A stretch of DNA of 64,000 nt from a phage, in NCBI GenBank assembly GCA_020773975.1, contig GCA_020773975.1_3638.1; one strand, given 5' to 3'. The notes under the pieces are model-generated. The model searched no databases and was not told the origin of the DNA. It worked only from the letters and a program-made list of their open reading frames with translations. Positions 5,676-54,380 of the stretch are shown piece by piece. The translations under genes and the position numbers were made by a program. The first letter of the stretch is position 1; each line of letters opens with the position of its first letter.

Positions 5676-5895
5676 GGTTGGCTACCCCTTTCTTCAACAA
5701 CTTGATGTTAGTTTTAAGTTCTGCAATTTGACACATAGCGTCAATATTTGTGTCTTCTAACTTCTTAATTTCATCAAGAAGTGTCAATACAACCTCCGGT
5801 GTTACCATACTACGATAATCCGTCACCTCTTGATAAGTACCGCCATCTCTTGCTATCTCTGCTAACTTACGTAATTCTTGGTAGTCAATTTTCAT
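5668..5895 (-). CDS. hypothetical protein
   Basis: ORF-track ORF in co-directional array. Confidence 0.5.
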   Translation of the reverse strand: MKIDYQELRKLAEIARDGGTYQEVTDYRSMVTPEVVLTLLDEIKKLEDTNIDAMCQIAELKTNIKLLKKGVANHD

Positions 5896-6289
5896 AACTT
5901 GATAAGTCCTGCGTTGTTTTATTTACTACATCATATGCCTCTTTGAGCACCCAGTCAACAGCATCTTTCCATGCTCCGGTTTCGACTGGTGGATTCTCAC
6001 GCTTAACCTGTTCATAGAAGCGCACTGCTTTAATCAATCCTTCTAAGGTTACAGGTGTGGTGTATAACGCCTGAATTTCGTAGTTTGGTCTGTCGTTACA
6101 ATCCTCTTTTGTCGGTACATATTTCCAGTCACCAACCCACGGCTCCCCCTGAGAGTCCGTAACGCCTTTTTTCACGTAGCGATATCGCCATGCAACTGGT
6201 TGTTGGGTTGCTGCTTTAAGGCTTGGTGACGAAGATGGAAGCGCAACATTAGTCATTTCCGAGATGACAGGTTGATAACCATTGCTCAT
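5885..6289 (-). CDS. hypothetical protein
   Basis: ORF-track ORF in co-directional array. Confidence 0.5.
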   Translation of the reverse strand: MSNGYQPVISEMTNVALPSSSPSLKAATQQPVAWRYRYVKKGVTDSQGEPWVGDWKYVPTKEDCNDRPNYEIQALYTTPVTLEGLIKAVRFYEQVKRENPPVETGAWKDAVDWVLKEAYDVVNKTTQDLSSYEN

Positions 6290-6464
6290 TTAAATCTCCT
6301 CCTGCCTCATATGCCACTTGTAACCAATACATAAATGTTTCAATAGAAACACAACCACAATCCACATCAATCTGGTCATGTTGTTGTTCCAACCACTGCT
6401 GAAAACGTGATTTTTGAGTATCATTCTCTGGTTGTTCTTTTATCATTATCACCCCCATCGGCAA
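6249..6464 (-). CDS. hypothetical protein
   Basis: ORF-track ORF in co-directional array. Confidence 0.45.
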   Translation of the reverse strand: MPMGVIMIKEQPENDTQKSRFQQWLEQQHDQIDVDCGCVSIETFMYWLQVAYEAGGDLNEQWLSTCHLGND

Positions 6465-6528
6465 ACTGAGTACACTGCAAAGGCTACAGCCATTACAACC
6501 CCTACCGTTGTGAATGCTTCAGGCCAAG

Positions 6529-7191
6529 TCATTGATTCATCCCCTTCTTTTTGAGCATAGCGGCACGACAGGCATTCCAGCCATCAACATAATCAAACGT
6601 ATTGCTATCGTCTGGCTCGATTTCATCTGGTACTGCCAATGTCGGCTGGGCGGCAGCATTGGCAAAGGCTGCACGCAACCCTGTCTTAATCTCCTCTACC
6701 TCATCAGCACCTAGCGATGAATCTGACAGTGCATGATGGAATGCGTATGCCATGTCGTCGTTTACTGTTATCGGTTCCACTTTCTTTACTGTAAGTGTTG
6801 GCGGTACATGATACAACGGGATTACACGACGCGGGTCTGTACCTTTACCTGGTGGGTACGGCATTATCCAGCCTAAACCAATCTGATCAACATCCCGCAA
6901 CTCCTCTTCGTCCGTCCATCCCACCGGTTCTGCTCTCAACTCCACCTGCGCATTAGGGGAGGTGTAGAGTGGGATTCCTTTCCTCCCACCAGAAAATTCA
7001 TTGCGAGCGTTATACTCACGACCATCTGCGTCCTCACACATCCATGCTACAGGCTCTGTTTCCAGCACTGCCAGAGCAATTCGAGCCAGTTCTTGCGCTT
7101 CTTCTGCTGGCAGTACAACGTTGCCACCAAGTCCGTATGTTTCGCGCCATTGCTTGATTGTCAGCAGACGTTCTTTGGTAATAGTGGTCAT
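6529..7191 (-). CDS. hypothetical protein
   Basis: 220 aa, acidic, no recognisable catalytic motif. Confidence 0.55.
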   Translation of the reverse strand: MTTITKERLLTIKQWRETYGLGGNVVLPAEEAQELARIALAVLETEPVAWMCEDADGREYNARNEFSGGRKGIPLYTSPNAQVELRAEPVGWTDEEELRDVDQIGLGWIMPYPPGKGTDPRRVIPLYHVPPTLTVKKVEPITVNDDMAYAFHHALSDSSLGADEVEEIKTGLRAAFANAAAQPTLAVPDEIEPDDSNTFDYVDGWNACRAAMLKKKGMNQ

Positions 7192-9644: not shown

Positions 9645-12056
9645 ATGGTAGTAGATAACCCTCCTGACACCTTGGTCGTACCATCCCCATTTCACCAATT
9701 CCCAATGGAACAGGACTCCCATGAGGTCAAACAATGAAGCACCACCGTTTTGTTGGTAAGCATTCAGCAGAGAATGTTTAGAACGAGTCCAAATTTTACG
9801 CCCGTCCATGCCTGGAATATAGCGTCTCCCATTTGCCTCCCAGAATTTTTCCAACCACTCCCTACGCATTTTCAACCCGAAGTTACTATCCCAGAATGCA
9901 TCTATTACAGCCTGTGCTCTATTAAGGGGGATACCCAGCATTGCGGCTATCTTAGGAGCTTGTGCTCCATACATAATTCCATACGTAACCCCCTTTCCTC
10001 CAGAGCGTGTTACCTCCTTTCCTGCTGCTATTGTGTATGCTCTTGCGTTTCGTTCATGGGCATCCTCTTCCATCATGATACGTAAATACTCACCACCATC
10101 AAACTCAAAAGCCCCTGCCGCTGCAATCATACCTTCTAAGTTAGATCCATCACAACCCATCAGGTAGTAGCCTTCAGGGACTGTCCAAAGACCCCGCATT
10201 TCTTTTCCCAACAAAACCTTCGGATCAGGCTTGGGCATGTTTGCGCAAACAGTATGCTTGCACCTGCCCGTGTTAGTGATTCCAGAAAAACGTGCTGGAA
10301 GTTTTCCGTCAATGTCTAAACGAGGGTGATTTAATAACCCTGTATCCGTCTTATCCTCATCCATTGGGTCTAAAACAGATCGCCTGTTACGAAGTGATAG
10401 CCACTTAACAATCTGTTTTGCCATATGCACATCAATTTTCTCCAAATTTGGACACAGATGCCCAAAATTATCTTTTAATTGAGGAGATGTCGGTAACTGG
10501 CGTGCTTTACGCCGAAATTTCTTAAATATCTCTGAATAACCCCTTTCAGATGCATGGCGATGGTCAAACTTACGCTCTGAAATGTTGAATTTCTCATCTG
10601 AATCATTAAGGTAGTCAAGAATAAGAGATTTATACTCAGACTCTGCCAACTCTTCTATGTACTTCTTAACTAGTACATCAATTTCAGAATCTTCACGAGT
10701 CTTTTTAAATTGATCCTTAGTAACATCTTTTACGCGCCACAGTGTAGGTTTCCAACCAGCATCTTTGATCAAATATTTTTTAATATCATCCTGATTAGAG
10801 ATTTTCATTGGAACCATTAAATCTGGCATTTTTCTGTTTCGAAGGTCTTCTTTAGCCTTCTCTAGAAGATCCGGCGGTAAAGGTTCGAGTGTGTTCTCTT
10901 TGGTTCGCTGGGAACGAATGAAATCACCGTATAAAGCCGGATCTTCAATGCCATTCTGGATGCAATATCTCTCCCCTGCTGCACTTACATCCCCATTGCT
11001 CTTAAAAGCTGTTTTTGGTGGAGCTTTAAACTCCAGAGCTTCCCTGTTAACAGGATAGCCAAGTTTATATTCCAACCAATTCCACCCATGATGAGATATA
11101 TTACCCGCTGTGTCAAAAGGGTTAGCTGGGAATTTTGGTTGTTGAGATTTCGTCATCTCTTTTTTTGGAAGAAGTGGTTCTACCTCTTCTTCAATTTCTC
11201 GCATCATCTTATCTATGCGATCTCTTAATTTTTCTGCCTCCTCCCGATTAAAGTATACGCCTTGTATTTCTTGCTCTATCATCAAATAGTCTGTGAGCAT
11301 TCTCCTACGTAATGCATTTTTCCAATTAATCTGGTGCATCCCGTGAGGTTTATCAGTGTACATAAACTGCTTGTCATCAGGCCATCGCGTACCATTTGAC
11401 TCATCAATAAGAGCTTTCCACACAAGTTCGTTAATGATAACGTCTTCCCACACACGGTTTACATATTCCCACAATGGCTGATTACGCCAATCATCAATCT
11501 GCACTTTCTTGTTTGCTACACGATAACCCCATGCCAATAAGCCGTGTGGCCCAACCCTGTCACGTTTTCCTGTTACAGGGTTCAATACAGAATCTGGGCA
11601 GCCATTAGGCAATGGGCGATCTGGGTAAAGAACACGACTCATTGAAAGAGTGTCGTAAAGATTTACCTGTTTATTACCTATCGTCCCCATACATTTTAGG
11701 TCTTTGAACATGTCATATTCAATCCCAGAAAGTTTTTTCCACAGACGTAAATCATAGCCGAACAGGTTATGTATTGCTATCCCTCTTGGCTCGGTCTGCA
11801 ACCAAGAGTAAAAATCATCATAAGAAAGGATACGTAAATTAACACCTTCTTTGCTGCGTGCAAAATTAACTGCACTCTGGTATTCCTTGTGAGCAGGATC
11901 GAGAAACAACACCCAGTTATTTACAGCATATTCTTTAAAAAGTGTGCAGTGATATTTAGTTGCCTCTTCTAATAATCCGTCAGCTTCGTTATCTCCGACA
12001 AAAAGCCCTTTCATACTCCTCCTATTCAAGATGGGCTTGACTGTATCGTCGCCCAT
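9645..12056 (-). CDS. DNA polymerase, family A (T7 gp5-like), 5' exon
   Basis: N-terminal 3'-5' exo motif LFVGDNEADGLLEEATKYHC (T7 MIVSDIEANALLESVTKFHC as recalled); motif A GCDGSNLEGM; motif B RSGGKGVTYGIMYGA; ORF stops 2 codons after the expected motif-C His. Confidence 0.85.
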
Positions 12057-12209
12057 CTCTTAGTTGGTTATAGATTATGTGGAAAACTACCTATTTTTGA
12101 TTTATGTTTCTTTGCCAAAGGGCTTCTCTTGGCGGGAATGTACCCCTCAAGCCCCTTGGCAACACGAATAGCTAACTCATCATATTTTACATGTATCCTC
12201 TTTTTTCTC

Positions 12210-15182
12210 TCAAAATGGAGAATCGCTATCTAAATCTTCAGGTTGCTCAATCACAACAGCAGGTTCTTGTTGAGGAACAGAAACAGCAATTTTCCCCACA
12301 GGTGTTTCAAGTTCCAGACTTTGAATCATTGATTTAGGTCTTAGCATTACCTCCCCGTTGAGTTTAAACATATTGTCTTCCCACACCCATCCTGACGCAT
12401 CAGAAAACTGACCATTATCATCCATAATCAGGGTATCCGCTATGCCTAATTTTTTGTGTGGACGGTTTTTCAAAACAACACTACGAATACGCCCACGAGA
12501 TCGGTCAGGGAGTTCTTCAGGCTCGACACCTAAGACAACCCACGATAACTGTTCGAGTGCTGCACTATTTCCTGTGACAAAAATATGTCCGTTGCGGCGT
12601 GCCACCCACATACCGGATGGTAATGTAAAGCAATACTTGCGACCATCTGGGGAAGGTACACGTTTAATAGAAGATTTATTTTTCCCTCCTTTACGTATAT
12701 GCATATACTTTGTGGCACAAACTCTTACTACATACAGAGGTTTGTGATCATATTTACCATCAAACGCACCATTGCCATTTTTTACAACAGACACAGACGT
12801 TCTATGCCCACAAGCACTGTAAGCAAATTGTAGGAAATCTGCCTCAAATTTGTTAATGGTTGATACCCTGTTTCTGTTTACAGAATCACCATCCCAATAC
12901 ATGACTTCATCACAGATAATCTCCAACTCGTGCTGTTTAAGATTAAACCATTCCTTTGTCACCCCTTTATACCCACAAGGGGCTTTAAATTGGTACTCTG
13001 TTCTGCCTTCATGCTTCCCGTGCAAATCAAAACTCTTGTAAGGAGTGTTCGTCTTCTTCAGTAGCATCTCAAGGCGTTGTTTCTTACGTTCTTTTTTGAT
13101 GCGTACAGCTACCCTTCCCGTTGATTCAGTAAGAACCGTCCCATCAGCATTTACAGCTATCTGTAAACGTAGTTGATCATCAGTTAACCCTAATGAACCA
13201 TCACATCCAGTGGTGAATGTAGTAGGTATTTTACCACGCATACCTGATCGTTTATTGGTATGGTCATGAACAACCTCCTGCATAGTTTTCATACGAAAAA
13301 TATCAGGCGTTCGATCGTTTACATACACAACACGATGTTCATCGCTCAACATCATGTCTACAACATGGCTATTAGAAAGATGCCACATTTCATTACAAGG
13401 TAGATTAATGTACGCCTCGGGATTTACGAAGGTCATTACACCATTTTTATCGTGTTGTGCAACCAAATCTCCTTCTACGTATTCATCAATACGTTTCCAG
13501 CCTTGCGGGGTTAAGAACTCTGTGCTTGCATCAACACAACCACGGAGATCCTCTTTCCGCACAGGATACCAAAACGGTAACAAATTACCTTCTTTATCTT
13601 TCGGAATTTGTATATCAACACGCTTCATATGACTGATACTGAGGATAAACACGTCATATTTTTTGCAGAAGGCAGCCAATTCCGTCATGATGTTATCTAA
13701 ATCTCTTCGCTCGTTATCGGATTTTAATCCTGATATCACCATCGATAAGTGATCTAAGATAATCCATCTACACCCATCAAGGAAAACCATCTGTTTCAAT
13801 TTTTGTAGTAATTGGTCAGTTGGTATTGAACCAAAGTGATCGAAAATTTTAACCTTATCTTCGGCAATCCATCGTTGGTGTATAGCTAAGTGCTGCTCAT
13901 CGGTAAGGAATTGTTCTGGGTCTGCAACAAATGCTTTCGGGTCAATCTTTAGCTCCTCAGCATATAAACTGTTTACAGACTCCTCCTCATCCTCCTCTAG
14001 ACGAATAATTGCAATTTTCTCGTTCTCTTTCCAACCGTCTAATCGGGGAATATCCATGTTACGGAGGTACTCGATAATTGCATACTCAATCTTTCTTGAG
14101 AAAGTTGATTTCCCAGCTCCAGATGGGCCTGTCAGTGTCCACAATTCTCCTGTTCGTGGGCCTCTTGTTAGTTCATACAAACGAGGAAAGCACGGCAACG
14201 GAACGCCATCTTTTTTCTTTTTACGGAGATTTTCAATAGATATTCTCTCCAACCCAATCAATTTGTCTGGAACATATTTATCCTGCGCTTTAGCAAACAT
14301 ATTCCAGATATCCATCCATTTACCTTTTTTGTAAATATCCCGGATATCTTTAACACCATTTGGGTCATTGCGCTCATTTGGGTATCGTGCAACATAGATG
14401 TTGTCAGACAGTAAAAAACCTGCGACATCATCTGTGGCTTCCTTACCTTTCTTAATTCTGTGTTCTTTTTCCCTTGCTGTGGCTTCATCATTGTCTAAGC
14501 CAAGGACAATCTTTTCATATTCCCTGATAAACTTTTCGTTGTGGGCGAATGTATCCACAGCATTGGCTGTACCACAGTTCAACCCGATAAAAGGTAATGT
14601 CGGGCAATTAGAAACCTCTTCCCCATCCTGAATTGCTTTGATGCCTTTTAAAGCATTGTTTGCCCACTCACGTACTGAACGTGACGTGTTAGGATTGCTA
14701 TGAAGGAATTTAATATACTCAAACCCAGCTTGCCAGCCAGCCGTTACATCACCTTCCCCCTCAACAATAAAGATCTGTTTTTTACCAGATCCCATAGAGG
14801 CCTCATGTTGACCAAAAAATTGAGAGGAAGCCTTTACTGTGCCAACAACAGAGAAATGCCCCTTTTTCTCTTTCGGAACAGTCCAGTCTCGTTTTTTGTA
14901 CCCTGTCAATTTCCCATATTTGTCATAATATGGAAGATATGTTGCCACCACTGTAGTACCGTCTTTCAAATCTGTTGCAGATCTGATCTTGAAGTACTTA
15001 GCTGCATCTAAACTAATATCCATTTGGGGGACAGCCAAGATCCTTGTACTATCTAGGACAGACTCTACAGTTTCTTCTTCTTTTTTCTGATAATTCACTT
15101 TACCACCACTTTTTGTAGGTCGGAATGCTTTTGGGTTCTCACCTTCAAAGTATGCACCAGCCCCCCATTTTGTCATCTTCAT
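12210..15182 (-). CDS. bifunctional primase-helicase (T7 gp4-like) containing an intein
   Basis: Toprim motifs IFIVEGEGD and GLDNDEA; Walker A GPSGAGKST; helicase motif H4 split as DLRG|intein|SAALEQLSWVVLG (T7 gp4 LRGSGALRQLSDTIIAL as recalled); acidic C-terminal tail ending in F. Confidence 0.85.
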   Translation of the reverse strand: MKMTKWGAGAYFEGENPKAFRPTKSGGKVNYQKKEEETVESVLDSTRILAVPQMDISLDAAKYFKIRSATDLKDGTTVVATYLPYYDKYGKLTGYKKRDWTVPKEKKGHFSVVGTVKASSQFFGQHEASMGSGKKQIFIVEGEGDVTAGWQAGFEYIKFLHSNPNTSRSVREWANNALKGIKAIQDGEEVSNCPTLPFIGLNCGTANAVDTFAHNEKFIREYEKIVLGLDNDEATAREKEHRIKKGKEATDDVAGFLLSDNIYVARYPNERNDPNGVKDIRDIYKKGKWMDIWNMFAKAQDKYVPDKLIGLERISIENLRKKKKDGVPLPCFPRLYELTRGPRTGELWTLTGPSGAGKSTFSRKIEYAIIEYLRNMDIPRLDGWKENEKIAIIRLEEDEEESVNSLYAEELKIDPKAFVADPEQFLTDEQHLAIHQRWIAEDKVKIFDHFGSIPTDQLLQKLKQMVFLDGCRWIILDHLSMVISGLKSDNERRDLDNIMTELAAFCKKYDVFILSISHMKRVDIQIPKDKEGNLLPFWYPVRKEDLRGCVDASTEFLTPQGWKRIDEYVEGDLVAQHDKNGVMTFVNPEAYINLPCNEMWHLSNSHVVDMMLSDEHRVVYVNDRTPDIFRMKTMQEVVHDHTNKRSGMRGKIPTTFTTGCDGSLGLTDDQLRLQIAVNADGTVLTESTGRVAVRIKKERKKQRLEMLLKKTNTPYKSFDLHGKHEGRTEYQFKAPCGYKGVTKEWFNLKQHELEIICDEVMYWDGDSVNRNRVSTINKFEADFLQFAYSACGHRTSVSVVKNGNGAFDGKYDHKPLYVVRVCATKYMHIRKGGKNKSSIKRVPSPDGRKYCFTLPSGMWVARRNGHIFVTGNSAALEQLSWVVLGVEPEELPDRSRGRIRSVVLKNRPHKKLGIADTLIMDDNGQFSDASGWVWEDNMFKLNGEVMLRPKSMIQSLELETPVGKIAVSVPQQEPAVVIEQPEDLDSDSPF
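12567..13538 (-). mobile_element. intein (324 aa) inserted in helicase motif H4, probably with a LAGLIDADG-like endonuclease domain
   Basis: Starts CVDASTEF (block A), ends ...NGHIFVTGN with +1 Ser; flanking extein sequence reconstitutes DLRGSAALEQ; internal IAVNADGTV and MYWDGDSV resemble LAGLIDADG motifs. Confidence 0.6.
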
Positions 15183-23579: not shown

Positions 23580-23754
23580 TGTTTTGTTTCTCTTTAACAA
23601 TAGGTGCTTTCTGAACAGAGTATACAAATGTTTTATTGTCTTCAATAAACTTTCTGCCCTGTTCTTCATCTTCAAAAATAATTGTGTCACACTTTGCCTT
23701 TAACATACCACGTTCTACAGTTGTGTGTGTCGTAGAAACAATTAAAGCCATCAA
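23566..23754 (-). CDS. hypothetical protein
   Basis: 62 aa, translationally coupled to neighbours. Confidence 0.35.
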   Translation of the reverse strand: MMALIVSTTHTTVERGMLKAKCDTIIFEDEEQGRKFIEDNKTFVYSVQKAPIVKEKQNNDYD

Positions 23755-24785
23755 GACACCTCGTTAAGTTGTTCCATGTACCAACTACGGGCTTTATTTG
23801 TTGTAAATTTTGCCACGTCTTTCATAGAAAGAGAATTGGCTTCTAACACATCTGCTTCTTCTTTGTTGATATCGCGGTTAACCCATGCGATAAATGCCCC
23901 CAGAGATGCGATGTCCAATCCAATTTCTTGCAACCCTTGTCGTAAACGGTTCTCAGTAACTGCATACTCCACAAAATCTTTGATAGATTGCAGTTTCACA
24001 GGATCAACAGCAGCCAGGGTTTTCACTTTAGAAACAGAATGTTTTTGCCCTTTCACTTTAAACCAAAGTGCAGAAACATGTGCCAAGTGGCGATCTTTAG
24101 GTGTCCATACCACACCCTCACCAACACCAGATACGCCAAAATATTTACCTACTGGACACTCTTTTTCCACACCTTCGGTAATCTGTGCAATTTCTGATTG
24201 CACTGTCTCTGGCATGTTAAAAGGAATATCCAGTTCCCACTTACCAAAAGTTAAAATATTATAAATACGTTGTTCTGGTAATCCAATGCCAAGAATATCG
24301 TTTAAAGCTAACCATTTCCGATGGTCATTCTCTTTTCCTACTGCCACACGGAAAATAGTAAAGAAAGGCATGATTTCAGATACCGCAACACCTTTCTGGA
24401 TACCTTTCCCTGCAAATTCCCCAGCGATTTCTACTGGGAACTTAAATTCAATACCACGATCTTCGCAGATCTGTTTGACTTGCTCCAACAGGCCTTTAGG
24501 GTCTTTTTCAACCATAAAGGCCATAAACCCATAATTATCTTCTTCCAGAGACAAAACGCGTTCTTTGGACTGGTATACAACCTCATTTTCAGAATTAAAG
24601 ACTACACGGCAATTAGTCCCGTGAATTTTAACTGTTCCTACATAAGGAATGAGATATTGGTCTGGAGAGGCAACCTTACGCTTTATATTGCCATTCTCAT
24701 CACGACCATCATAAGTCAGACGGTCATTAACCGCTCGGATAACATTGCGAAATTGACTAGTGCTTGGGTACTTAGTTGCTTGCAT
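23751..24785 (-). CDS. RNA ligase 2 family (T4 Rnl2-like)
   Basis: Nucleotidyltransferase lysine motif VKIHGTN (KxHGxN) near the N-terminus; 344 aa, same size class as T4 Rnl2. Confidence 0.7.
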   Translation of the reverse strand: MQATKYPSTSQFRNVIRAVNDRLTYDGRDENGNIKRKVASPDQYLIPYVGTVKIHGTNCRVVFNSENEVVYQSKERVLSLEEDNYGFMAFMVEKDPKGLLEQVKQICEDRGIEFKFPVEIAGEFAGKGIQKGVAVSEIMPFFTIFRVAVGKENDHRKWLALNDILGIGLPEQRIYNILTFGKWELDIPFNMPETVQSEIAQITEGVEKECPVGKYFGVSGVGEGVVWTPKDRHLAHVSALWFKVKGQKHSVSKVKTLAAVDPVKLQSIKDFVEYAVTENRLRQGLQEIGLDIASLGAFIAWVNRDINKEEADVLEANSLSMKDVAKFTTNKARSWYMEQLNEVS

Positions 24786-25158: not shown

Positions 25159-25340
25159 TGTCCCTCCACATCGTCAATATCTTCCATACCATCTTGCCAC
25201 AGAACTTCATAGCAAGCGTCATAAATTGCGCTCATAGCATCTTTACGATCTAACACATCTACAATTTTTGGATCAATACTTTTAATTGCTTCCGCAATTT
25301 TATCGTAAGCAATATCAGGATGCATGTTCTCTTTTGCCAT
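25155..25340 (-). CDS. hypothetical protein
   Basis: 61 aa acidic ORF. Confidence 0.4.
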   Translation of the reverse strand: MAKENMHPDIAYDKIAEAIKSIDPKIVDVLDRKDAMSAIYDACYEVLWQDGMEDIDDVEGQ

Positions 25341-25836
25341 CTGGGATCTCCTCTTCGTTTAAGACATAAATTGTCACATCACAATCATGGAGAACAGATT
25401 CTATCATAGTTTCTATGATTTTCCAATCCCCACCTGCTAGTCCAGCACCTATTTTTGGCAGCCCGATCTTATAATCAGACATAAAGCCATCTGTGTGCCT
25501 TTGCAAACAATCTCGCATTGCTGCTAAAGAATCGTAAAGGGCGTTATAATTCAGATCCCTCACACCCATTCTACGCCCATTATATCCGTATTGTGTGTAC
25601 AGATTAAAACCCGCCAGCTTACCTTCGTTCATGACAGCCCAAGTATAACTGCCCAGTTTTGTTCGATCACCTTTCTCTGTCTTTAAATCTTCAGCATACA
25701 TTTTTGGGAATGTATTCTTTATTTCTTTAGCAATTCCAGACCCCATGGTGCAAAATGTATTACAACCATGAGCTATCACATTAACATCCCTTTTAAGTGC
25801 TGCCTCTATTAAGCAACCAACTTTATACTTAAGCAT
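25315..25836 (-). CDS. macro-domain protein (ADP-ribose binding / ADP-ribosyl hydrolase-like)
   Basis: DVNVIAHGCNTFCTMGSGIA (cf. IVNAAN...GGGV) and GLPKIGAGLAGGDW (cf. P.IGTG.GG); start taken at the ATG at 25836 so that it abuts the upstream stop. Confidence 0.65.
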   Translation of the reverse strand: MLKYKVGCLIEAALKRDVNVIAHGCNTFCTMGSGIAKEIKNTFPKMYAEDLKTEKGDRTKLGSYTWAVMNEGKLAGFNLYTQYGYNGRRMGVRDLNYNALYDSLAAMRDCLQRHTDGFMSDYKIGLPKIGAGLAGGDWKIIETMIESVLHDCDVTIYVLNEEEIPDGKREHAS

Positions 25837-26011
25837 TGTCTGATACCTCTTCGCATTCGTATGGATAGATATCCAGTCTTTTCCCATTCCATTCGCAAGA
25901 GTAACACTCAAGAAAACTACCATTAAATATTTCTTCTCTTACTTCAAGAATATCTCCTGTTTTTGGATATCCATCAACATCCGAAAAATCAGAAATCATT
26001 TTAACCTTCAT
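25829..26011 (-). CDS. hypothetical protein
   Basis: 60 aa; part of a chain of translationally coupled small ORFs. Confidence 0.4.
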   Translation of the reverse strand: MKVKMISDFSDVDGYPKTGDILEVREEIFNGSFLECYSCEWNGKRLDIYPYECEEVSDNA

Positions 26012-26640: not shown

Positions 26641-27849
26641 TTAATTTAAAATTGCATCTACATCTTTTGCAAAGTTCTTGTGATATTCAGTAATAATCTG
26701 CATGACAACAGGATACTTCTTAAGTAACTTCGCTGGCAGTCTGTCACGAAGGCCATCTAACAAAATACCCTTCCCTGTAGAACTGTCATTAATAAACATC
26801 ATGAAGACAGATGATACAAAATCACGGTTGGAATGAGCATCATCTTTACCAAAGTTATCATACAGATATTGCAAGAAATTGGCTGAGAAGTCAATAATCT
26901 GATCATCTGTGTAGTTGGTATTCTTCATAGCCTTACGTAGCCAGATGCAACCTTGTGATCCTAGCGTCCACAATACATCAGAGCTATCAGAGCCAGTGTG
27001 TTCCTTAATTGAACCATCCATTACTTTCTCAATGGGGACCATATCAGCAACGCGAGTATGGTAATACCATAACTCTTTCATTAACGGCCCACCAATACAC
27101 CCTTGCAAAGCAGCCATTGCAAGACGGGAAGTAAGATCACCATCCTCATACGCATACAGAATATCACTTGCAGTAACCCAAGTTCGTGGTGTGGCATATG
27201 CAGGACTGTTAATCTCATACATGGCCTCGAAGTTTTCCAGTTTATCGGGATTGGCCTGGATAAAACCAATTACTGATGGATGCACATTTTTACGCAACGC
27301 ATAATCCTGCATCCACACAGAGGCATCGTAATCAAGTTCCACAACAATAAAACGGTTAGCCAAAGGAGCTTCCATCATGGTCACTGCCGTACCATCACCA
27401 GGACGGTTCCCTGCCGCTGCAAAAACTGCACCTTTTGGAAAGGTGTACTTACCAATTTTATGATCCAAAACAATCTGGAAAGCTACTTTCTGTAAGTAGT
27501 TATCAGCATGTAAAAGTTCGTCAAGGAAAATAATACCTTCCCAATCTGGGTCTTCTGGCCAGAAATCTGGTAGCGCATAGACTGTACGTGTTTTTCCATT
27601 ATCGTCTGTTACAGGAATCTGTACACCTACTACGTCTGTCGGATCTTTATCCGCAAGACGAAAATCAACGAGATTATCATCTCGTTCACCAAACATCTCA
27701 TTGGCAACTTGCTTCATGACTTGACTCTTACCAAGCCCAGCACCACCAAACATCATAAGTGCTTTGTTTGCCTTCTTACAAAATTTCATGAGGCTTGGAA
27801 TATCACGGAGTGTAACACGATGATCTTCAAAAATATTTCTACTAGACAT
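26641..27849 (-). CDS. AAA+ ATPase, MoxR/CbbQ/CobS-like
   Basis: Walker A MMFGGAGLGKSQV, Walker B IIFLDELLHAD; 402 aa. Confidence 0.75.
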   Translation of the reverse strand: MSSRNIFEDHRVTLRDIPSLMKFCKKANKALMMFGGAGLGKSQVMKQVANEMFGERDDNLVDFRLADKDPTDVVGVQIPVTDDNGKTRTVYALPDFWPEDPDWEGIIFLDELLHADNYLQKVAFQIVLDHKIGKYTFPKGAVFAAAGNRPGDGTAVTMMEAPLANRFIVVELDYDASVWMQDYALRKNVHPSVIGFIQANPDKLENFEAMYEINSPAYATPRTWVTASDILYAYEDGDLTSRLAMAALQGCIGGPLMKELWYYHTRVADMVPIEKVMDGSIKEHTGSDSSDVLWTLGSQGCIWLRKAMKNTNYTDDQIIDFSANFLQYLYDNFGKDDAHSNRDFVSSVFMMFINDSSTGKGILLDGLRDRLPAKLLKKYPVVMQIITEYHKNFAKDVDAILN

Positions 27850-28631: not shown

Positions 28632-28847
28632 CTAATCCTCCCATTTTATCCATAAAGGGTATTCTGCAACATGCACTTTCTTACCCTTTTTGTTAATAAA
28701 AGTATACTCAACAAACTTTGCTATGTAAAACCTATTGTAATCCTCTGTACCTTTAACAGGACAGTCTGTTTTCCTTCTCTCCACCCATTCTCTGTGGATC
28801 ACCGCTTTGTTCTTTGGATCAAATGGATGTGGTTGATAAACATTCAT
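28632..28847 (-). CDS. hypothetical protein
   Basis: ORF-track ORF in co-directional array. Confidence 0.4.
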   Translation of the reverse strand: MNVYQPHPFDPKNKAVIHREWVERRKTDCPVKGTEDYNRFYIAKFVEYTFINKKGKKVHVAEYPLWIKWED

Positions 28848-29344
28848 TATTTCCCCTCGAATCTTTTTCTTGCATCAGCAAGTTTAAGATGCATTTCATG
28901 GTATTTCTTTAACCTTGCCAAATCCTTATCAGATAAGGATTTAAGACGTTTTACGTCCATATTGTCTTTTAAATCAGCGAGTTTTACACGAATCGCATCA
29001 TAATTAGTACAGATGCCCTCAATGTACTCTTCTTCAGTCAGGCTCTGTTTCTTTGTTAGCAGAAGAACTGCATCTTTTACTCTGTTAGTGAACCCTAACA
29101 TTACCAAATCGTAAGCTGTAACTTTAGTATCCTCAAGGATATCGTGAAGGACACCGATTGCCATTAGCTGTAAGTCATCATTACCAAGTTCATGCATCAC
29201 CCTTAATGGGTGAAGAATGTATGGCATTCCACCACGATCTTTCTGCTTAAGATGGTTTTCAGAGGCCAACTTTACAGCTAAAGCCAACTCCTGATGGGGT
29301 CTTAAATCTTGCATATTACTGGGGACAGACTTCGATTGTACCAT
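28847..29344 (-). CDS. HD-domain (p)ppGpp hydrolase-like protein (small alarmone hydrolase, SpoT/MESH1-type)
   Basis: GGMPYILHPLRV ... AIGVLHDILEDT, matching the RelA/SpoT hydrolase HD motif (H.L.VA ... LLHD..EDT); 165 aa. Confidence 0.65.
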   Translation of the reverse strand: MVQSKSVPSNMQDLRPHQELALAVKLASENHLKQKDRGGMPYILHPLRVMHELGNDDLQLMAIGVLHDILEDTKVTAYDLVMLGFTNRVKDAVLLLTKKQSLTEEEYIEGICTNYDAIRVKLADLKDNMDVKRLKSLSDKDLARLKKYHEMHLKLADARKRFEGK

Positions 29345-30162
29345 TTATATGTCTCTTCCATGTTAAAGGGTTTTATACCGATATTATCAAAATCTACAAG
29401 AGAATCAAGAAAAAATTCTCCTTTGTACCCAGCCATTTCTATCATTGAGCGTTCCTCTTGGGTAGGGATCTCCCCCAAGATAAGCTCTTTTAGCTCCTTT
29501 TCTACAACACGATGGTACATTACTTCTTGGGTATTACACACCAAGTAGTAGTGCGATTTCTTATTCTCTACGTTTGGCGTGTTGGCTATCTTAATTGCAG
29601 CATGACCTACATAATCATACATCTTTGTTTGGTAAAACATTCCATAACAACCCGCCAGAGAAAAGGATCCAAAACTGGAGTTAATCTCCCTGATGTGGAG
29701 AATATCTGGGTTTGTTCTGACATAGGAAGCCTTTATGGAAAACATATTACCATCCCAATGCCCCAATTGGGACAAAACAGACAGGAATTTTTGTGTTCGT
29801 GCAGACAACGATCCTGCTAAACACATTCCATAATTAAAGCCTTGGAAAGAAATTGTTATTTGCCCACAAGTAATATCATAGCTTGAAAACTCATGCGTTA
29901 AGTTTACGCTTGCCATGTAAGCACGCTCGTCAGCTTCAACATAATATTTCCAGTAACATTTCCTATCCCGAGTATCAAAACACATAAGCACAGCATGTTT
30001 TATGAGTTCTATTAAAGGGTTTGGTTCATGGTGGCGACTTTCAACTTCCCTTATAATGGCTTCACGGAATACATTAAAATCTATTTTCATAGATTTTGTG
30101 TGATACAGGTAGGCATCAAAGTAAGAAGAAATGTTTTCGTCAGGTATCTTTGTCATGGTCAA
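29302..30162 (-). CDS. hypothetical protein
   Basis: 286 aa; first gene of the minus-strand block next to the divergent region. Confidence 0.5.
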   Translation of the reverse strand: MTMTKIPDENISSYFDAYLYHTKSMKIDFNVFREAIIREVESRHHEPNPLIELIKHAVLMCFDTRDRKCYWKYYVEADERAYMASVNLTHEFSSYDITCGQITISFQGFNYGMCLAGSLSARTQKFLSVLSQLGHWDGNMFSIKASYVRTNPDILHIREINSSFGSFSLAGCYGMFYQTKMYDYVGHAAIKIANTPNVENKKSHYYLVCNTQEVMYHRVVEKELKELILGEIPTQEERSMIEMAGYKGEFFLDSLVDFDNIGIKPFNMEETYKWYNRSLSPVICKI

Positions 30163-30267
30163 ACTCCAAAAATATTTTCATTGGTTATGAGGAATGTACA
30201 GAACTAAAAAATCAAAGTCAACGCTTGACAAACTGGAAATTTGTGAGATACTACGAACACAAGTTAA
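30163..30267. promoter_or_regulatory. divergent promoter region between the minus- and plus-strand blocks
   Basis: TTGACA at 30225-30230 followed at 15-17 nt by GATACT/TACTAC; AT-rich. Confidence 0.35.
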
Positions 30268-31083
30268 GTGACAGAGATATTCTGTATGAACTGGAATGAA
30301 GAGTTTACAACCAAAGAGATAAGGTATCTCAAAACACGACTCTTTTTCAAAAAGAGGAATACCAAAGCGAGAGGTATAGAGTTTAATCTGACAGAAGATG
30401 ACTGGTTTATGATGGGCAACGGATTACTTGGGAAAGGTGTTTGTGATTACACAGGCCTACCTTTTTCTGCAACACCTAATGACCCCCTCTACCCGTCTGT
30501 TGAACGAATAGATGACAAAAAAGGGTATGTTCGTGGAAACGTTTGTGTAGTCGGTAAGAGAGCAAACCAGTTAAAAGATTTTCTTGTAGACAAAAAGAAA
30601 GCTCTAACGATTGTAGATCCACTCGACATGGATATCGTCCAAGGAATGATGTTAAATATGTCAAAGGATCACTTGGAAAAGTTAAAACTTAAATACATAC
30701 CTACGGAAACAGATATGAAAGAGACAGAGAACGTAATTATTGATGAGCAGGTTGAAGAGATGAAAGAAAAATCTCTTCCTGACGATGTTGAAATTGCACT
30801 TGCATACGCAAACTACTGTAAAACATTTGCGGAAGCAGGTATGAATGTTAGCGTTACTTATGCACAATTTAAAGCTAAATATTCAAGAAACACCTGTTCT
30901 CTAACAGGGGAGAAGTTAACAAAAACACCAAAACCTATTCTCATTATGGATTTAGATCTTGGGTTCGCAAAAGACAACTTTATTATTGTTTCTGAAAAGA
31001 TGGAAACAGCATTAACACAACTCATGATCAATACGAAAATGAGTTTACCAAAAATTACAGCTATGCTGAACAAGGTGGTTTAA
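30268..31083 (+). CDS. hypothetical protein with two repeated domains, possible HNH-like endonuclease (tentative)
   Basis: ORF-track start is GTG; first ATG at 30286; motif PSVERIDDKKGYVRGNVCVVGKRAN recalls endonuclease/DNA-binding modules. Confidence 0.35.
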   Translation: MTEIFCMNWNEEFTTKEIRYLKTRLFFKKRNTKARGIEFNLTEDDWFMMGNGLLGKGVCDYTGLPFSATPNDPLYPSVERIDDKKGYVRGNVCVVGKRANQLKDFLVDKKKALTIVDPLDMDIVQGMMLNMSKDHLEKLKLKYIPTETDMKETENVIIDEQVEEMKEKSLPDDVEIALAYANYCKTFAEAGMNVSVTYAQFKAKYSRNTCSLTGEKLTKTPKPILIMDLDLGFAKDNFIIVSEKMETALTQLMINTKMSLPKITAMLNKVV

Positions 31084-31271
31084 TGAAAGATTCTCTACCA
31101 AAACCGTGTCCGTTTTGTAAAAATGATGCACTTCTGCTTAAACAATCACGCTCTGGTCAAACAATATTTCACTACATTTACTGCCAGAAATGTGGAACAT
31201 CTGGGCCACAGGCTCTGAGTGAGCCTACTGCTGTAAGTTGGTGGAATGTCGGTAATAAAGAGGTAAAATAA
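31083..31271 (+). CDS. Lar-family restriction alleviation protein (Zn ribbon)
   Basis: 62 aa; KPCPFC ... CQKCGTSGP ... AVSWWN matches the Lar-family pattern CPFCG...C..CG..GP...A...WN. Confidence 0.55.
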   Translation: MKDSLPKPCPFCKNDALLLKQSRSGQTIFHYIYCQKCGTSGPQALSEPTAVSWWNVGNKEVK

Positions 31272-31587: not shown

Positions 31588-33024
31588 ATGCAAAAAGACG
31601 AACATGAAATGATTGCCAAGTTAGAGAAGGATGCTGTAAAAGTTATCCAATCGGCACGAATAGCTCTTTTAAAGTACAGACCATTTTACGGGACTTTGTT
31701 AAGTTCTCTACCCTTAGTTGCTAACTGGAAATGGTTGCCAACAGCAGCGACTGATCACAAAAACCTCTACTTCAACCCTGAGTTTATTATGGGTATGCCT
31801 GAAGAAAGGAAGAAGAAGGTTTTTGAGCGTGTGGATAATCACCCCACAATGACACAACAAGAAAAAGATGACTATAAAGACTATGTGAACGTATTTTATC
31901 GTAAGAAAACACCCAAAGAGGTTGTTGTTATTCTTATGCACGAGCTACGTCATATTACTAACGATCATTTATCCCGTGGAAAAGCATTTGATTCTAAAAC
32001 CTACAACACAGCAGCAGATCATTATATTAACACGGATTTAGTGGTGTCTGATCTTGGGCCACGCTCCAGCCAGATGTGTTTCTTCCCAATGGGGAAACAG
32101 ACAACCTTTGACAAAGGTAAAGAGTTTGGGTTTATGGCTTATTGCTACTGTGATTTTAATTTCCACGGTAAGACAGCGGAGGAGATTTACAGTCTCATAA
32201 ACAAAGGCCAACCGTCTGTTGGTAAACCTATGGGCACACACATAGGTGATTATGATCAAGACAGCAATATCCTAGGATATGAAGATCCTCACCCAGTGCC
32301 AAGCCAAGCAGAAAAAGATGATAATATGTCGTGGTCATCTGGTCTTATCGAGGCCGCGATGGAAGCAGCGGGAGGAGAGGGGCCGAAAGAGGTGCGTGAC
32401 GTTATTGCAAGAATGCGTAAACCACACATAAATTATCTTCAGATAATCAAACAGCGTATGCTTTCTCGGATCAAGTCTAACCTGACATACAGGAAACCAT
32501 CTCGTAGGTCTGGATCTATGACACAGGCACTTCGGCAGTATGGAGCTATTGGAAAAAAACAGCATATTGTTTTACCAGGAAGGGAGTACGATAATACTAT
32601 AGATATAGTTATTGGCTTCGATGTGTCTGGATCAATTTCGAAGGCGAATTTAGACAAAATCTTCGGAGAAATTGTAGGATTATGCCAGCTTTACCGCGTT
32701 TTTCGCGTGACATTGTTCTGTTGGTCAACAAAAGTCGGAGAGGTTAAAGTTTATACACATGATAATATCAAGGAAATGCTTGATTATAAAGTAAATTCTA
32801 CGGGTGGGACACTTGCAGCATCGGCTTTTGAGTATATTGAAAATAACATTTTTGATGCAAAAGACGTTATTATTTTTACAGACGGATATATAGAGGATTT
32901 AAGACACAAGAAAAAAGATTGGGGACGCAAATGGGATATTCTTTGGGTTATTTGTGGTCGCGGAAATAATAAATTTGTACCACCTTTCGGAAGGGCTGTA
33001 AATTTAGATGAACACGCAAAATAA
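31588..33024 (+). CDS. vWA-domain protein with N-terminal putative metallopeptidase-like domain
   Basis: HExxH-type motif LMHELRHI; MIDAS motif IVIGFDVSGSIS and FTDGY; 478 aa; candidate partner of the MoxR-like ATPase. Confidence 0.65.
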   Translation: MQKDEHEMIAKLEKDAVKVIQSARIALLKYRPFYGTLLSSLPLVANWKWLPTAATDHKNLYFNPEFIMGMPEERKKKVFERVDNHPTMTQQEKDDYKDYVNVFYRKKTPKEVVVILMHELRHITNDHLSRGKAFDSKTYNTAADHYINTDLVVSDLGPRSSQMCFFPMGKQTTFDKGKEFGFMAYCYCDFNFHGKTAEEIYSLINKGQPSVGKPMGTHIGDYDQDSNILGYEDPHPVPSQAEKDDNMSWSSGLIEAAMEAAGGEGPKEVRDVIARMRKPHINYLQIIKQRMLSRIKSNLTYRKPSRRSGSMTQALRQYGAIGKKQHIVLPGREYDNTIDIVIGFDVSGSISKANLDKIFGEIVGLCQLYRVFRVTLFCWSTKVGEVKVYTHDNIKEMLDYKVNSTGGTLAASAFEYIENNIFDAKDVIIFTDGYIEDLRHKKKDWGRKWDILWVICGRGNNKFVPPFGRAVNLDEHAK

Positions 33025-46190: not shown

Positions 46191-47651
46191 GTGGCAAAAC
46201 AGTTCTTTGACAAACATTACATGGAAACGCATTTTGTAGAGAAACCTCTGCATCGCCTGAACTTTACAGATTTAGAAGGAATGAGGTTTGGCAAGATAAC
46301 GGTGCACAAACTTAACAGAAGAGAGGATAAGTCTTTTGTGTGGTGGTGTACGTGTGATTGTAACCCATCCAGATATTTTATGGTTGTGCCTTACTCACTT
46401 AAAACAGGGGTGACAACATCTTGTGGTTGCAATTATAAAACTAATGGAGGGAATATACATGAAACACTCCAAGAGTTTCAAAAGAAAGTTGGTGGTGATT
46501 GGGAGATTATCTCATACCAAGGTAGAAAGCACGATTGTGTTGCCAAATGTACTATGTGTGGGAGTATTGTCACCAAACAAGGTGGCTCATTTATCTGCGG
46601 TGTGACGTGCCATTGCACTGATAAAAGAATAAAGAGGCGTGATGATATTTTGCATCTTGCGGGGTACAGTCTGATCAAAGAAGAGAAAGTTCAACAGCAG
46701 AATGGTGAATATATAATGCACTTGCGCTGTAAATCTTGTGGTGTTAAGAAACTGACGCGAAACACGGAGTTAAGGGATTTAAAGCCATGCCTGTGTAGAG
46801 GCGACCACACCAACAATGGGAAACCTTGCGCCATTTACCTGCTTTCACATAAAGATGGTAAGTATTGTAAGATTGGTAGGTCTTATAGCCCCTCCTCAAG
46901 ATTACGTATGATTAATGGTTCTGGTGGCGACTTTATATTGGAGCATGTTTGGTGGACACCTAACTATCACTACGCATCTGTGCTGGAGACAACACTCCAC
47001 AGGGAATTTTCTGAGCATCGCTTTGACGCTGGTGGTTTCGATGGGAGCACAGAGTGTTTCTACATAAAGCCTGACAAATTGGCAAAAGGAATATCTGAGA
47101 TAGTCGCCAAGTTGGTTGGGGATTACAAACCTGAAGATGGGGTGTTGACAAAAGATGTGAAGATAAGGAATAACTACAAGAACAGCGGTATGATTGTGAA
47201 GTCTAGGAGTTATCACTTCAAAGAGTCAGATGTGTGTTTGTGGATACCTTATAAAGGGTATCTCAGAAAGAAGAGATCCCCATTCTCCTCTTGGGAGATG
47301 GCAGAAGAGTGTCACTATTTAGCTGCAAATGTGCAGCCTTCCAAAAACTTAGATAGGTTTAAAATTTATGATGTGGATGGGGTTACTGACTCCATAGCAG
47401 GTTGGTCAAGGAGAACTGGAATCCCTGCTCAGACACTTACGTGGAGAATGCAACGCACAGGCATGACAATGAAAGAGGCGATTAATTATTGCAGACCAGA
47501 CACTGTTATTTGGTGTGGCGGGAAAATGGTTAAGAAGAGAGATCTTAAAAGCATTATCGGTGTTTCTTGGGAGTCGGTTTATACAGCATCCAGAAAAAGC
47601 AAGAAGTCCCCAGAACATATTATAGAAGAAATACTGAAAAGGGCCACTTAA
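46191..47651 (+). CDS. T5orf172 (GIY-YIG superfamily)-like protein with N-terminal Cys-rich Zn-finger repeats and C-terminal HTH-like module
   Basis: GTG start 4 nt after AGGAGG; core AIYLLSHKDGKYCKIGRSYSPSSRLRMING ... EHVWW ... ETTLHREF ... GSTECFYI; several CxxC/CxC clusters upstream; C-terminal GVTDSIAGWSRRTGIPAQTLTWRMQRTGMTMKEAI. Confidence 0.55.
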   Translation: MAKQFFDKHYMETHFVEKPLHRLNFTDLEGMRFGKITVHKLNRREDKSFVWWCTCDCNPSRYFMVVPYSLKTGVTTSCGCNYKTNGGNIHETLQEFQKKVGGDWEIISYQGRKHDCVAKCTMCGSIVTKQGGSFICGVTCHCTDKRIKRRDDILHLAGYSLIKEEKVQQQNGEYIMHLRCKSCGVKKLTRNTELRDLKPCLCRGDHTNNGKPCAIYLLSHKDGKYCKIGRSYSPSSRLRMINGSGGDFILEHVWWTPNYHYASVLETTLHREFSEHRFDAGGFDGSTECFYIKPDKLAKGISEIVAKLVGDYKPEDGVLTKDVKIRNNYKNSGMIVKSRSYHFKESDVCLWIPYKGYLRKKRSPFSSWEMAEECHYLAANVQPSKNLDRFKIYDVDGVTDSIAGWSRRTGIPAQTLTWRMQRTGMTMKEAINYCRPDTVIWCGGKMVKKRDLKSIIGVSWESVYTASRKSKKSPEHIIEEILKRAT

Positions 47652-53133: not shown

Positions 53134-53326
53134 GCAACCCTCGCTTGTGCCTGTACATTGCTAGGGGCCATACAGAACTCACTATAAAGCATTTCCATGC
53201 CCAACCCCATGCAGTTTTTGGTGCATATACCTGCTCAAGTATTTTACTATTCTCCATCTCTGCGGTATGTACAAACCATACAGCAATATACAATGTAACT
53301 ATAATGTAGATAAAGCCATTAATCAT
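53108..53326 (-). CDS. small membrane protein
   Basis: 72 aa, two hydrophobic segments. Confidence 0.35.
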   Translation of the reverse strand: MINGFIYIIVTLYIAVWFVHTAEMENSKILEQVYAPKTAWGWAWKCFIVSSVWPLAMYRHKRGLHEEKTGTA

Positions 53327-54380
53327 TCATCTTATCCCAACACATTTGTTGTGCTGTCATCAAAACATCGGCAGCAAAGTTAAGATCTGTTGTTTTCGGT
53401 AAATGCGTGTTCTTGTACAGAGTGTTACGAATATAATCATCCTTCTCTTCTGCCCAAGCCAAGAGCTTCTCCAAAGACCATGCGCCATTCCTGATTGCAA
53501 GAAGCTCCTGAGCATCAGGTCTTTTTACTAAGACTTTCCCTTCCGTCAGGATTTCTTCCGCTTGACGCATCAGCCTAACCAAGTGCATACCATGCTTTGA
53601 ATCGAAGCCATACTTTTCTTCTAACTCATGACGTGCTGGGTTTCTGTTTTCAACCCATGTCCAGTAGTTCTTATGCTTTTCCTTTGCTTGTTTATGCTCA
53701 TCTGCCAGATATTTAACGATTAAAATTGGCTTACGTTTCTTATCTTCGTCAGAGAACTGCTCGTATGGAACTTTACGAATAGAACCATCAGAGTTAAACA
53801 AACCAGCATTGTCGCGTGTTCCGATTACACCATAGATATTATCACCCATGGGTAAAAAGACACACAACTTGTTAAGATCATCCAACATTTTCTGGAAGTC
53901 TTTGTGTTTTGTAAGATTATCATCCATCCACGAGTGTGTCAAGCGCATGAACTCTTTTTGTGTTGGTTGCTCTTTAGGCTGCGGGTTATTAATCCATTTA
54001 TTATGGCCTTTGATACGCTTCAGTTGCGCCATCGCATACCCAGAAAAAGTAAAAGCAACTTTACTGGATAGGAGTTTTGGCGCTTGCTCGCGTAGGTACT
54101 CGTAAACATCTGAAGTTTGCAGAATGTCACTTCTATCAACAAACATAAGCTCGATGATGTTTGGGTTCATATCAACGAACAACTTCATGTAGTTTGTTAG
54201 CTCATACAGCTTACCATCCTCTTCATCAATAAGAGTCATTTCTCTGTCAACGAAAAACGGGGTAAGAATGCTTTTAGGCTCTGCACAATAAATTCCGCGA
54301 ATATCCACATCGGATGTTGGTAAGTTAGTTCCATAGGCAATGCTACCACTGTAGCAGCGCATTAGTTCTAGTTTCTTCAT
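53319..54380 (-). CDS. nucleotidyltransferase-fold protein (Pol-beta-like NTase superfamily)
   Basis: GSIAYGTNLPTSDVDIRGIY = GS...G...SDxD signature of the minimal nucleotidyltransferase fold; 353 aa. Confidence 0.55.
   Translation of the reverse strand: MKKLELMRCYSGSIAYGTNLPTSDVDIRGIYCAEPKSILTPFFVDREMTLIDEEDGKLYELTNYMKLFVDMNPNIIELMFVDRSDILQTSDVYEYLREQAPKLLSSKVAFTFSGYAMAQLKRIKGHNKWINNPQPKEQPTQKEFMRLTHSWMDDNLTKHKDFQKMLDDLNKLCVFLPMGDNIYGVIGTRDNAGLFNSDGSIRKVPYEQFSDEDKKRKPILIVKYLADEHKQAKEKHKNYWTWVENRNPARHELEEKYGFDSKHGMHLVRLMRQAEEILTEGKVLVKRPDAQELLAIRNGAWSLEKLLAWAEEKDDYIRNTLYKNTHLPKTTDLNFAADVLMTAQQMCWDKMND

Follow-up and report, generated by a model that had tools for sequence, protein, structure and literature searches.

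A small HD-domain hydrolase from a relative of Escherichia phage Av-05 resembles adenosine-specific Aph1 and probably serves counter-defense

On which nucleotide does a small HD-domain hydrolase carried by a phage act, and what does the phage gain from it? The question is raised by a 165-aa protein encoded at 28847..29344 on the minus strand of a 64,000-nucleotide stretch of phage DNA (contig GCA_020773975.1_3638.1 of GenBank assembly GCA_020773975.1; the whole stretch is hereafter called the window). An earlier reading, made from the letters alone (the sequence-only reading), had taken it for a "SpoT/MESH1-like" small HD-domain alarmone hydrolase that could either blunt the (p)ppGpp-dependent stringent response of the host or neutralize alarmone-producing toxins and defense effectors. 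FaRel, Tas1 and Apk make (pp)pApp, and CapRel, FaRel2 and PhRel pyrophosphorylate tRNA; CapRel systems are known in enterobacteria. We found that the protein is a single-domain RelA/SpoT-type HD hydrolase whose closest relative is Aph1, not SpoT or MESH1. Taken as a whole, the evidence is probably best explained by an Aph1/PbcSpo-type adenosine 3'-pyrophosphohydrolase with a counter-defense role against effectors of the toxic small alarmone synthetase (toxSAS) and Apk types.

The open reading frame (ORF) claimed at this position was present in the ORF listing, starting with ATG and giving 165 aa (coordinates include the stop codon). It matched PHROG 990 (E 7e-55), and 4,895 homologues were retrieved from a large protein collection at E<=1e-5, the top one at 96% identity (E 1.5e-98). 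Homologues occurred in 394 phage records and 275 plasmid records. Against the gene of Escherichia phage Av-05 (Vequintavirinae, Avunavirus), we counted six synonymous and three nonsynonymous differences, with a ratio of nonsynonymous to synonymous polymorphism (pN/pS) of 0.13. This is a real, conserved gene under purifying selection. The 4 kb surrounding it were 96% identical to Av-05, which confirms the phage origin of the locus, and the source phage is a relative of Av-05 within the Vequintavirinae. Since the base composition of the locus was not atypical (GC content 0.36-0.41), there was no sign of recent foreign origin.

The features of the gene that bear on its assignment are these:

28847..29344, minus strand: coding sequence of the predicted Aph1/PbcSpo-type small alarmone hydrolase (SAH), an adenosine 3'-pyrophosphohydrolase by its ORF listing, its match to the Aph1 structure 7smg, its AlphaFold2 model and its identity to gp220 of Salmonella phage PVP-SE1.
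29237..29239, minus strand: codon of D36, equal to Aph1 D24, which replaces the guanine-stacking Arg of Rel/SpoT (MAFFT mapping; role from PMC10083569).
29198..29212, minus strand: HPLRV, residues 45-49, read from the sequence; H45 is the first metal-binding His (Aph1 H33).
29126..29149, minus strand: LHDILEDT, residues 66-73, read from the sequence; it holds the catalytic HD (H67-D68) and ED (E71-D72).
28901..28966, minus strand: C-terminal Aph signature block, residues 127-148 (DNMDVKRL...KKY), from the alignment and the search of the Protein Data Bank (PDB).

Both motifs on which the sequence-only reading had relied, HPLRV and LHDILEDT, are thus in place. To map residues, we aligned the query with Aph1 and 120 homologues in MAFFT, and conservation was counted over 121 sequences. 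The metal site of the HD domain, His...His-Asp...Glu-Asp...Asp, is complete (H45, H67-D68, E71-D72 and D124): H45 was invariant in 121/121 aligned sequences, H67, D68 and D72 were likewise invariant, E71 was kept in 120/121, and D124 and N128 were invariant or nearly so. The TIGR00691 spoT_relA profile was matched at positions 1-120 of 687 only (E 7e-14), corresponding to its N-terminal hydrolase part. By this coverage and by the structural model, the protein consists of a single HD domain of ~150 aa, and no synthetase domain was found in its 165 aa, a length that leaves no room for one, as had been said before. The Pfam HD_4 match was weak (16.5 bits against a gathering score of 27.2) and fell below the threshold, which accounts for the label "hypothetical" in some GenBank records; the names given to the family in Vequintavirinae entries include "hypothetical protein," "metal-dependent phosphohydrolase" and "guanosine-3',5'-bis(diphosphate) 3'-pyrophosphohydrolase."

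We then compared the protein with enzymes of known structure. The top PDB sequence match was 7smg, Aph1 of Bacteroides caccae, at E 1.1e-25, whereas Rel, SpoT and MESH1 entries scored between 1e-7 and 1e-5. An AlphaFold2 model built with 49 homologues (predicted local distance difference test [pLDDT] 93.1; predicted template-modeling score 0.87) showed one all-helical domain. When this model was searched with Foldseek, it superimposed on 7smg with a target-normalized template-modeling (TM) score of 0.90-0.93 and a root-mean-square deviation (rmsd) of 1.1-1.5 A over ~138 residues at 37% identity; for MESH1, the Pseudomonas aeruginosa SAH (PaSAH), RelH and Rel/SpoT domains, the TM score was ~0.6-0.7 and the rmsd mostly >3.5 A. 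DSSP divided the predicted model into nine elements, two of which (helices 58-66 and 69-72) make up a single kinked helix. As modeled, the protein has the compact eight-helix Aph fold, without the additional helices that (p)ppGpp hydrolases carry at the C terminus. Ahmad et al. defined the Aph family by a jackhmmer search with the C-terminal region of Aph1 (Y90-E143), from which the HD motif was excluded (PMC10083569). We ran the search in the reverse direction, comparing the last 63 aa of the phage protein with all PDB chains, and retrieved 7smg alone (E 3.9e-6); none of the Rel, SpoT or MESH1 entries came up. The label "SpoT/MESH1-like" was therefore right in pointing to a hydrolase-only RelA/SpoT homologue (RSH) and imprecise as to the family; the annotation is corrected here to "Aph1/PbcSpo-type," for which adenosine 3'-pyrophosphates are the expected substrates.

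Six residues mark Aph enzymes off from (p)ppGpp hydrolases, namely D24, R96, D116, R119, K133 and Y134 of Aph1 (Ahmad et al. 2023, PMC10083569). In the alignment, 5/6 were present in the phage protein:

Aph1 D24: D36 here, conserved in 121/121 sequences.
Aph1 R96: G110 here, not conserved; the column holds G in 74/121 and R in 9/121.
Aph1 D116: D130 here, conserved.
Aph1 R119: R133 here, conserved in 121/121.
Aph1 K133: K147 here, conserved.
Aph1 Y134: Y148 here, conserved.

Four of these positions fall in the C-terminal signature block, together with N128, the equivalent of Aph1 N114. Aph1 gained ppGpp hydrolysis only as the double mutant D24R/R119A (PMC10083569), and both of the residues concerned are retained here as D36 and R133. 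Conversely, the residues with which TtRel contacts guanine, R43/R44/S45, correspond to D36/R37/G38 in the phage hydrolase, which thus does not carry the guanine-binding set of a (p)ppGpp hydrolase. This signature points to an adenosine- rather than a guanosine-specific enzyme. In the work of Ahmad et al., 12/12 assayed members of the Aph1 family hydrolyzed ppApp efficiently (PMC10083569), and Aph1 itself, a tetramer, hydrolyzes pApp, ppApp and pppApp but not ppGpp (PMC10083569).

A counterpart that has almost certainly been tested is found in another phage. Gp220 of Salmonella phage PVP-SE1 shared 63% identity with the hydrolase over 160 aa and lay in the same surroundings: an overlapping upstream gene, a number of small genes followed by a gene for a MoxR-like ATPase on the same strand, with a divergent Srd-like gene and a DUF2201/VWA gene on the other side. 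In the study of Jimmy et al. (2020, PMC7229694, Table 1), the protein called "PVP-SE1 SAH (PbcSpo)" neutralized 5/5 toxSASs in E. coli, i.e., CapRel, PhRel2, FaRel2, PhRel and FaRel. Gp220 was the only homologous place in the PVP-SE1 genome at E<=1e-5 and, on sequence grounds, is almost certainly the SAH of that study; from the 63% identity and the shared gene order, our hydrolase very likely belongs to the same PbcSpo subfamily. Another tested relative is the Streptococcus pneumoniae Aph1, which hydrolyzes (p)ppApp and gives cross-protection (PMC12226406). The hydrolase was 43% identical to an S. pneumoniae prophage protein at the Aph1 position, after MuF-Apk2 and an IapK-sized gene.

Four of the toxSASs neutralized by the PVP-SE1 SAH, FaRel2, PhRel, PhRel2 and CapRel, make no alarmones and instead pyrophosphorylate tRNA at its CCA end, a modification that ATfaRel and MESH1 reverse in vitro (Kurata et al., bioRxiv 10.1101/2021.04.30.441581). 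ATfaRel and PaSpo, the latter an SAH from Salmonella phage SSU5 in routine use for the same purpose, detoxify both (pp)pApp-producing and tRNA-pyrophosphorylating toxSASs. Since the terminal group of pyrophosphorylated tRNA is itself an adenosine 3'-pyrophosphate, and since cells are protected against tRNA-modifying toxSASs by the PVP-SE1 counterpart, repair of tRNA A76 is probably also within reach of the phage hydrolase, by analogy with that counterpart.

From these elements, a mechanism can be proposed. Expression of the hydrolase would come from a leftward operon, with its beginning in a divergent promoter region. H45, H67-D68, E71-D72 and D124 would hold a metal ion (Mg2+ or Mn2+) and N128 would contact the ribose, while D36 and R133, aided by D130, K147 and Y148, would form a pocket that admits adenine and rejects guanine. 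The enzyme would then take the 3'-pyrophosphate off pppApp, ppApp and pApp, yielding ATP, ADP and AMP, and would also clear the 3'-pyrophosphate put on tRNA A76 by FaRel2-, PhRel- and CapRel-type toxSASs, restoring the A76-3'-OH. A lytic phage could in this way undo the products of toxSAS/Apk-type effectors of abortive infection or antagonism encoded by the host or a prophage, thereby preserving ATP pools and tRNA charging during infection. Counter-defense is thus the likely role, and blunting of a ppGpp-driven stringent response the less likely one. Of the two roles offered by the sequence-only reading, it is the neutralization of toxins and defense effectors that matches the PVP-SE1 data (PMC7229694), and the (p)ppGpp half that D36 and R133 make less likely. 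The idea is not new: Jimmy et al. proposed in 2020 that hydrolase-encoding phages evade alarmone-based abortive infection, and tested phage SAHs against toxSASs by coexpression (PMC7229694). Phage SAHs are accordingly a proposed means of escape from abortive infection driven by toxic alarmone synthetases.

The hydrolase resembles several named systems without coinciding with any of them. With B. caccae Aph1 (7SMG), it shares the compact HD fold, all catalytic residues, the specificity residues listed above, the Aph-type C terminus and a phage-borne gene, but it has ~12 extra N-terminal residues (of low pLDDT) and a longer last helix. With the PVP-SE1 SAH, it shares a vequintavirine carrier and the whole arrangement of the locus, although PVP-SE1 belongs to the genus Seunavirus, whereas the present phage is a relative of an Avunavirus, and the companion gene of the two loci is far more diverged (see below). 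C. marina ATfaRel, a type IV antitoxin SAH of the PbcSpo subfamily, and SSU5 PaSpo are likewise hydrolase-only RSH enzymes; ATfaRel differs in its three-gene toxin-antitoxin operon and in degrading ppGpp as well as ppApp, and PaSpo in belonging to another SAH subfamily, both being set apart here by their descriptions rather than by their sequences. MESH1, SpoT and Rel belong to the HD-domain superfamily, as the phage protein does, and have its HD...ED catalytic core, but they are much more distant from it; they carry additional helices at the C terminus, and their guanine-binding residues are replaced in the phage hydrolase.

Our own evidence for an adenosine 3'-pyrophosphohydrolase with a counter-defense role consists of the gene, the fold, the catalytic and specificity residues, and orthology by identity and synteny; what others have demonstrated for relatives is that Aph1 and 12 homologues hydrolyze (p)ppApp specifically and that the PVP-SE1 SAH neutralizes five toxSASs. 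Several points weigh against this interpretation. At one signature position, that of R96 in Aph1, the phage protein has G110, G being the commonest residue there in the subgroup; R96 lies away from the active site in Aph1 (PMC10083569). Strict specificity for adenine cannot be taken for granted, given that 2/12 Aph homologues showed a modest ppGpp hydrolysis (Ahmad et al., PMC10083569) and that ATfaRel, a PbcSpo enzyme, breaks down both ppGpp and ppApp. It is ATfaRel and MESH1 that were seen to remove 3'-pyrophosphates from tRNA; this evidence does not extend to Aph1 or the PVP-SE1 SAH, and the Aph1 paper makes no mention of tRNA (PMC10083569). The neutralization data all come from plasmid coexpression, and no study of a phage SAH in the course of real infection came up in our literature search. 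Matches to the promoter consensus in our scan amounted in total to the chance expectation, which leaves the promoter assignment weak. Finally, the activity of this particular protein, its action on tRNA, the timing of its expression and its benefit in infection are all inferred.

How do other explanations fare against the same evidence? If the protein were a SpoT/MESH1-like (p)ppGpp hydrolase, it would lower host ppGpp and avert a stringent-response shutdown that limits phage replication. The RSH hydrolase fold and the HD/ED motifs would suit this, as would the ppGpp activity noted above for ATfaRel, from the same PbcSpo subfamily, and for a minority of Aph homologues; moreover, according to a 2026 preprint, the stringent response can be a barrier to phage infection. 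GenBank relatives also bear the name guanosine-3',5'-bis(diphosphate) 3'-pyrophosphohydrolase, but such names are automatic transfers, not experiments. What tells against this explanation is that D36 and R133 equal the very Aph1 residues that had to be exchanged for any ppGpp hydrolysis, that the guanine contacts of TtRel are replaced, and that sequence and fold are much nearer to Aph1 than to any (p)ppGpp hydrolase, and we regard it as unlikely. Quite unlikely, too, is a general phosphohydrolase acting on the nucleotide pool or on other substrates (e.g., NADPH, pGpp or 3'-phosphorylated nucleotides, substrates of the sort known from MESH1 and certain orphan SAHs) in the service of phage nucleotide metabolism. 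MESH1 is an NADPH phosphatase (PDB 5vxa and 9chy were among the Foldseek matches), an orphan bacterial SAH is reported to be metabolically promiscuous (PMC9765508), and the genomic contexts of most Aph homologues are varied and free of toxins. Against this stand the efficiency of all 12 assayed family members on ppApp, the neutralization of toxSAS toxins by the PVP-SE1 counterpart, and the location of the gene, which occupies an accessory slot with host-takeover genes around it and lies outside the nucleotide-metabolism cluster.

The protein could also be an immunity factor against a (p)ppApp-synthetase toxin of the phage itself, guarding the infected cell or lysogen as Aph1 does against MuF-Apk2 in temperate phages. 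Exactly this role is known for Aph1 and its homologues in S. pneumoniae, Mannheimia and Pasteurella; the 43%-identical S. pneumoniae prophage homologue directly follows MuF-Apk2 and IapK, and the hydrolase gene here is overlapped by an upstream gene without assigned function. The surroundings nevertheless make this highly improbable. The gene does not lie directly downstream of Apk2 and IapK, as an Aph1-type partner of MuF-Apk2 does, nor beside either of them, and profile scans found a RelA_SpoT synthetase or MuF domain in none of the window ORFs of at least 150 aa (shorter ORFs were not scanned). No synthetase, MuF or IapK was annotated in ~106 kb of Av-05 (106-121 kb, ~15 kb, lay outside the scope), and tblastn with MuF-Apk2 and IapK against the window and Av-05 gave nothing (all E > 0.4). 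The upstream gene shows no relationship to Apk2 (E 2.5), and neither PADLOC nor Pfam gave a match for it. The carrier is apparently a lytic myovirus, not a prophage, and, in keeping with a lytic lifestyle, the annotations of Av-05 that we examined showed no integrase. Most Aph homologues, besides, do not adjoin toxins and occur in varied genomic contexts (Ahmad et al., PMC10083569). An Aph1/PbcSpo-type hydrolase directed at toxSAS/Apk-type effectors thus stays the explanation that we prefer.

The hydrolase gene does not stand alone: it comes second in a leftward operon whose cistrons are tightly packed. The gene in front of it, referred to here as the companion, is as follows:

29302..30156, minus strand: companion coding sequence; read from the ATG at 30156 it encodes 284 aa, the start in the ORF list being a TTG at 30162, and GGAG lies upstream of the ATG.

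The companion overlaps the start of the hydrolase gene by 43 nt. It is always paired with the hydrolase, lying directly upstream of it and overlapping it in Avunavirus, Seunavirus and Mydovirus genomes; the overlapping pair was found in PVP-SE1, 4MG, Mydo, VIK251 and GAP31 as well as in metagenomic contigs. Searches of Pfam, PDB sequences and PADLOC returned no match for the companion. An exhaustive profile search recovered 11 relatives among 1.84 billion representatives, none with a Pfam domain, and structure prediction was poor (pLDDT 49 from 8 sequences), Foldseek giving noise only (best E 0.03, TM 0.2). Between this phage and PVP-SE1, the companion was only ~26% identical, compared to 63% for the hydrolase; in the metagenomic contigs, the values were ~34% over 56 residues for the companion and still 62% for the hydrolase. 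The companion is an ORFan family that evolves far faster than its partner. Two candidate identities were rejected. The RefSeq name "thymidylate kinase" derives from PHROG 10920 alone, no P-loop motif was seen in the sequence, and the label is without support; and the same lack of similarity to Apk2 speaks against a disguised Apk2/toxSAS toxin.

A conserved hydrolase paired with a fast-evolving companion recalls the immunity of prophage Apk2 modules, in which a universal Aph1 is combined with a specific IapK. By this analogy, the two proteins could form a two-part counter-defense module against toxSAS/CapRel-type immunity. In it, the conserved enzyme would erase adenosine 3'-pyrophosphates universally, on (pp)pApp and tRNA A76-3'-PP alike, perhaps together with the CCA-adding enzyme, RNA ligase and RlaP encoded elsewhere in the window. 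The companion, coevolving with host effectors, would be specific to each lineage and serve as a binder, inhibitor or decoy. We regard such a module as a speculative and rather unlikely arrangement; since no homology backs the likeness of the companion to IapK, it is put forward as a hypothesis.

The immediate neighbors of the pair were as follows:

26641-27849, minus strand: MoxR-like AAA ATPase, flanking the hydrolase locus.
28632..28847, minus strand: DUF7202 gene, 71 aa (Pfam E 1.5e-36), whose ATG overlaps the hydrolase stop (TAATG).
30193..30221, minus strand: candidate sigma-70-like promoter, TTGACT-17-TACATT, between the divergent genes and ahead of the companion-hydrolase operon (consensus scan).
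30268-31083, plus strand: Srd-like "anti-sigma factor / HNH" protein (PHROGs 3118, 1400 and 4592), divergent from the hydrolase operon.
31083-31271, plus strand: Lar-like restriction-alleviation protein (PF14354), directly after the Srd-like gene.
31588-33024, plus strand: DUF2201 metallopeptidase/VWA-like protein, flanking the hydrolase locus.

The TAATG stop/start overlap places the DUF7202 gene in the transcription unit of the hydrolase, to which it is translationally coupled. The PVP-SE1 and rV5 records carry a promoter annotation in the corresponding divergent region, where it serves the Srd-like gene on the opposite side. The Srd-like and Lar genes are of the host-takeover or counter-defense type, among which the MoxR/VWA pair may be counted as well; the pairing of MoxR and VWA genes on opposite strands is also kept in PVP-SE1 and rV5. 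The rV5 genome has the shared backbone, i.e., the MoxR ATPase (51% identical), the Srd-like gene and gp006, and its syntenic locus is without the hydrolase, companion and DUF7202 genes. The companion-hydrolase pair is an accessory insertion. In rV5 (NC_011041.1), the companion/hydrolase slot is occupied at 5703-6602, minus strand, by an unrelated 299-aa gene annotated as "putative alpha 1-3 fucosyltransferase"; the first position past the divergent early promoter is therefore a variable accessory slot in the Vequintavirinae. An E. coli phage with a single accessory gene pair offers a tractable system in which the role of an SAH in real infection, and its relevant substrate, can be studied.

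Farther away, the window encodes several proteins of the RNA and tRNA-end repair type:

56201-57457, minus strand: CCA-adding-enzyme-like protein (PolyA_pol head, RNA-binding and HD parts).
53319-54380, minus strand: RlaP nucleotidyltransferase.
23751-24785, minus strand: RNA ligase (PF09414).
25315-25923, minus strand: weak macro-domain protein.

These genes fit, as circumstantial evidence, a phage equipped for RNA-end repair, and together with the hydrolase they may constitute a tRNA-repair or counter-defense toolkit. No tRNA genes were found in the window.

Two further observations were made. At 46191-47651 on the plus strand, the window encodes a 486-aa protein with a T5orf172/MUG113 (GIY-YIG-related) domain, and the region at ~37-46 kb has few long ORFs. 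In Av-05 (NC_025830.1), the closest complete genome, genes for a nicotinamide phosphoribosyltransferase and a ribose-phosphate pyrophosphokinase lie at 10571-13159, outside the part of the genome that corresponds to the window. NAD-salvage pairs of this kind are reported to counter NAD-depleting defenses.

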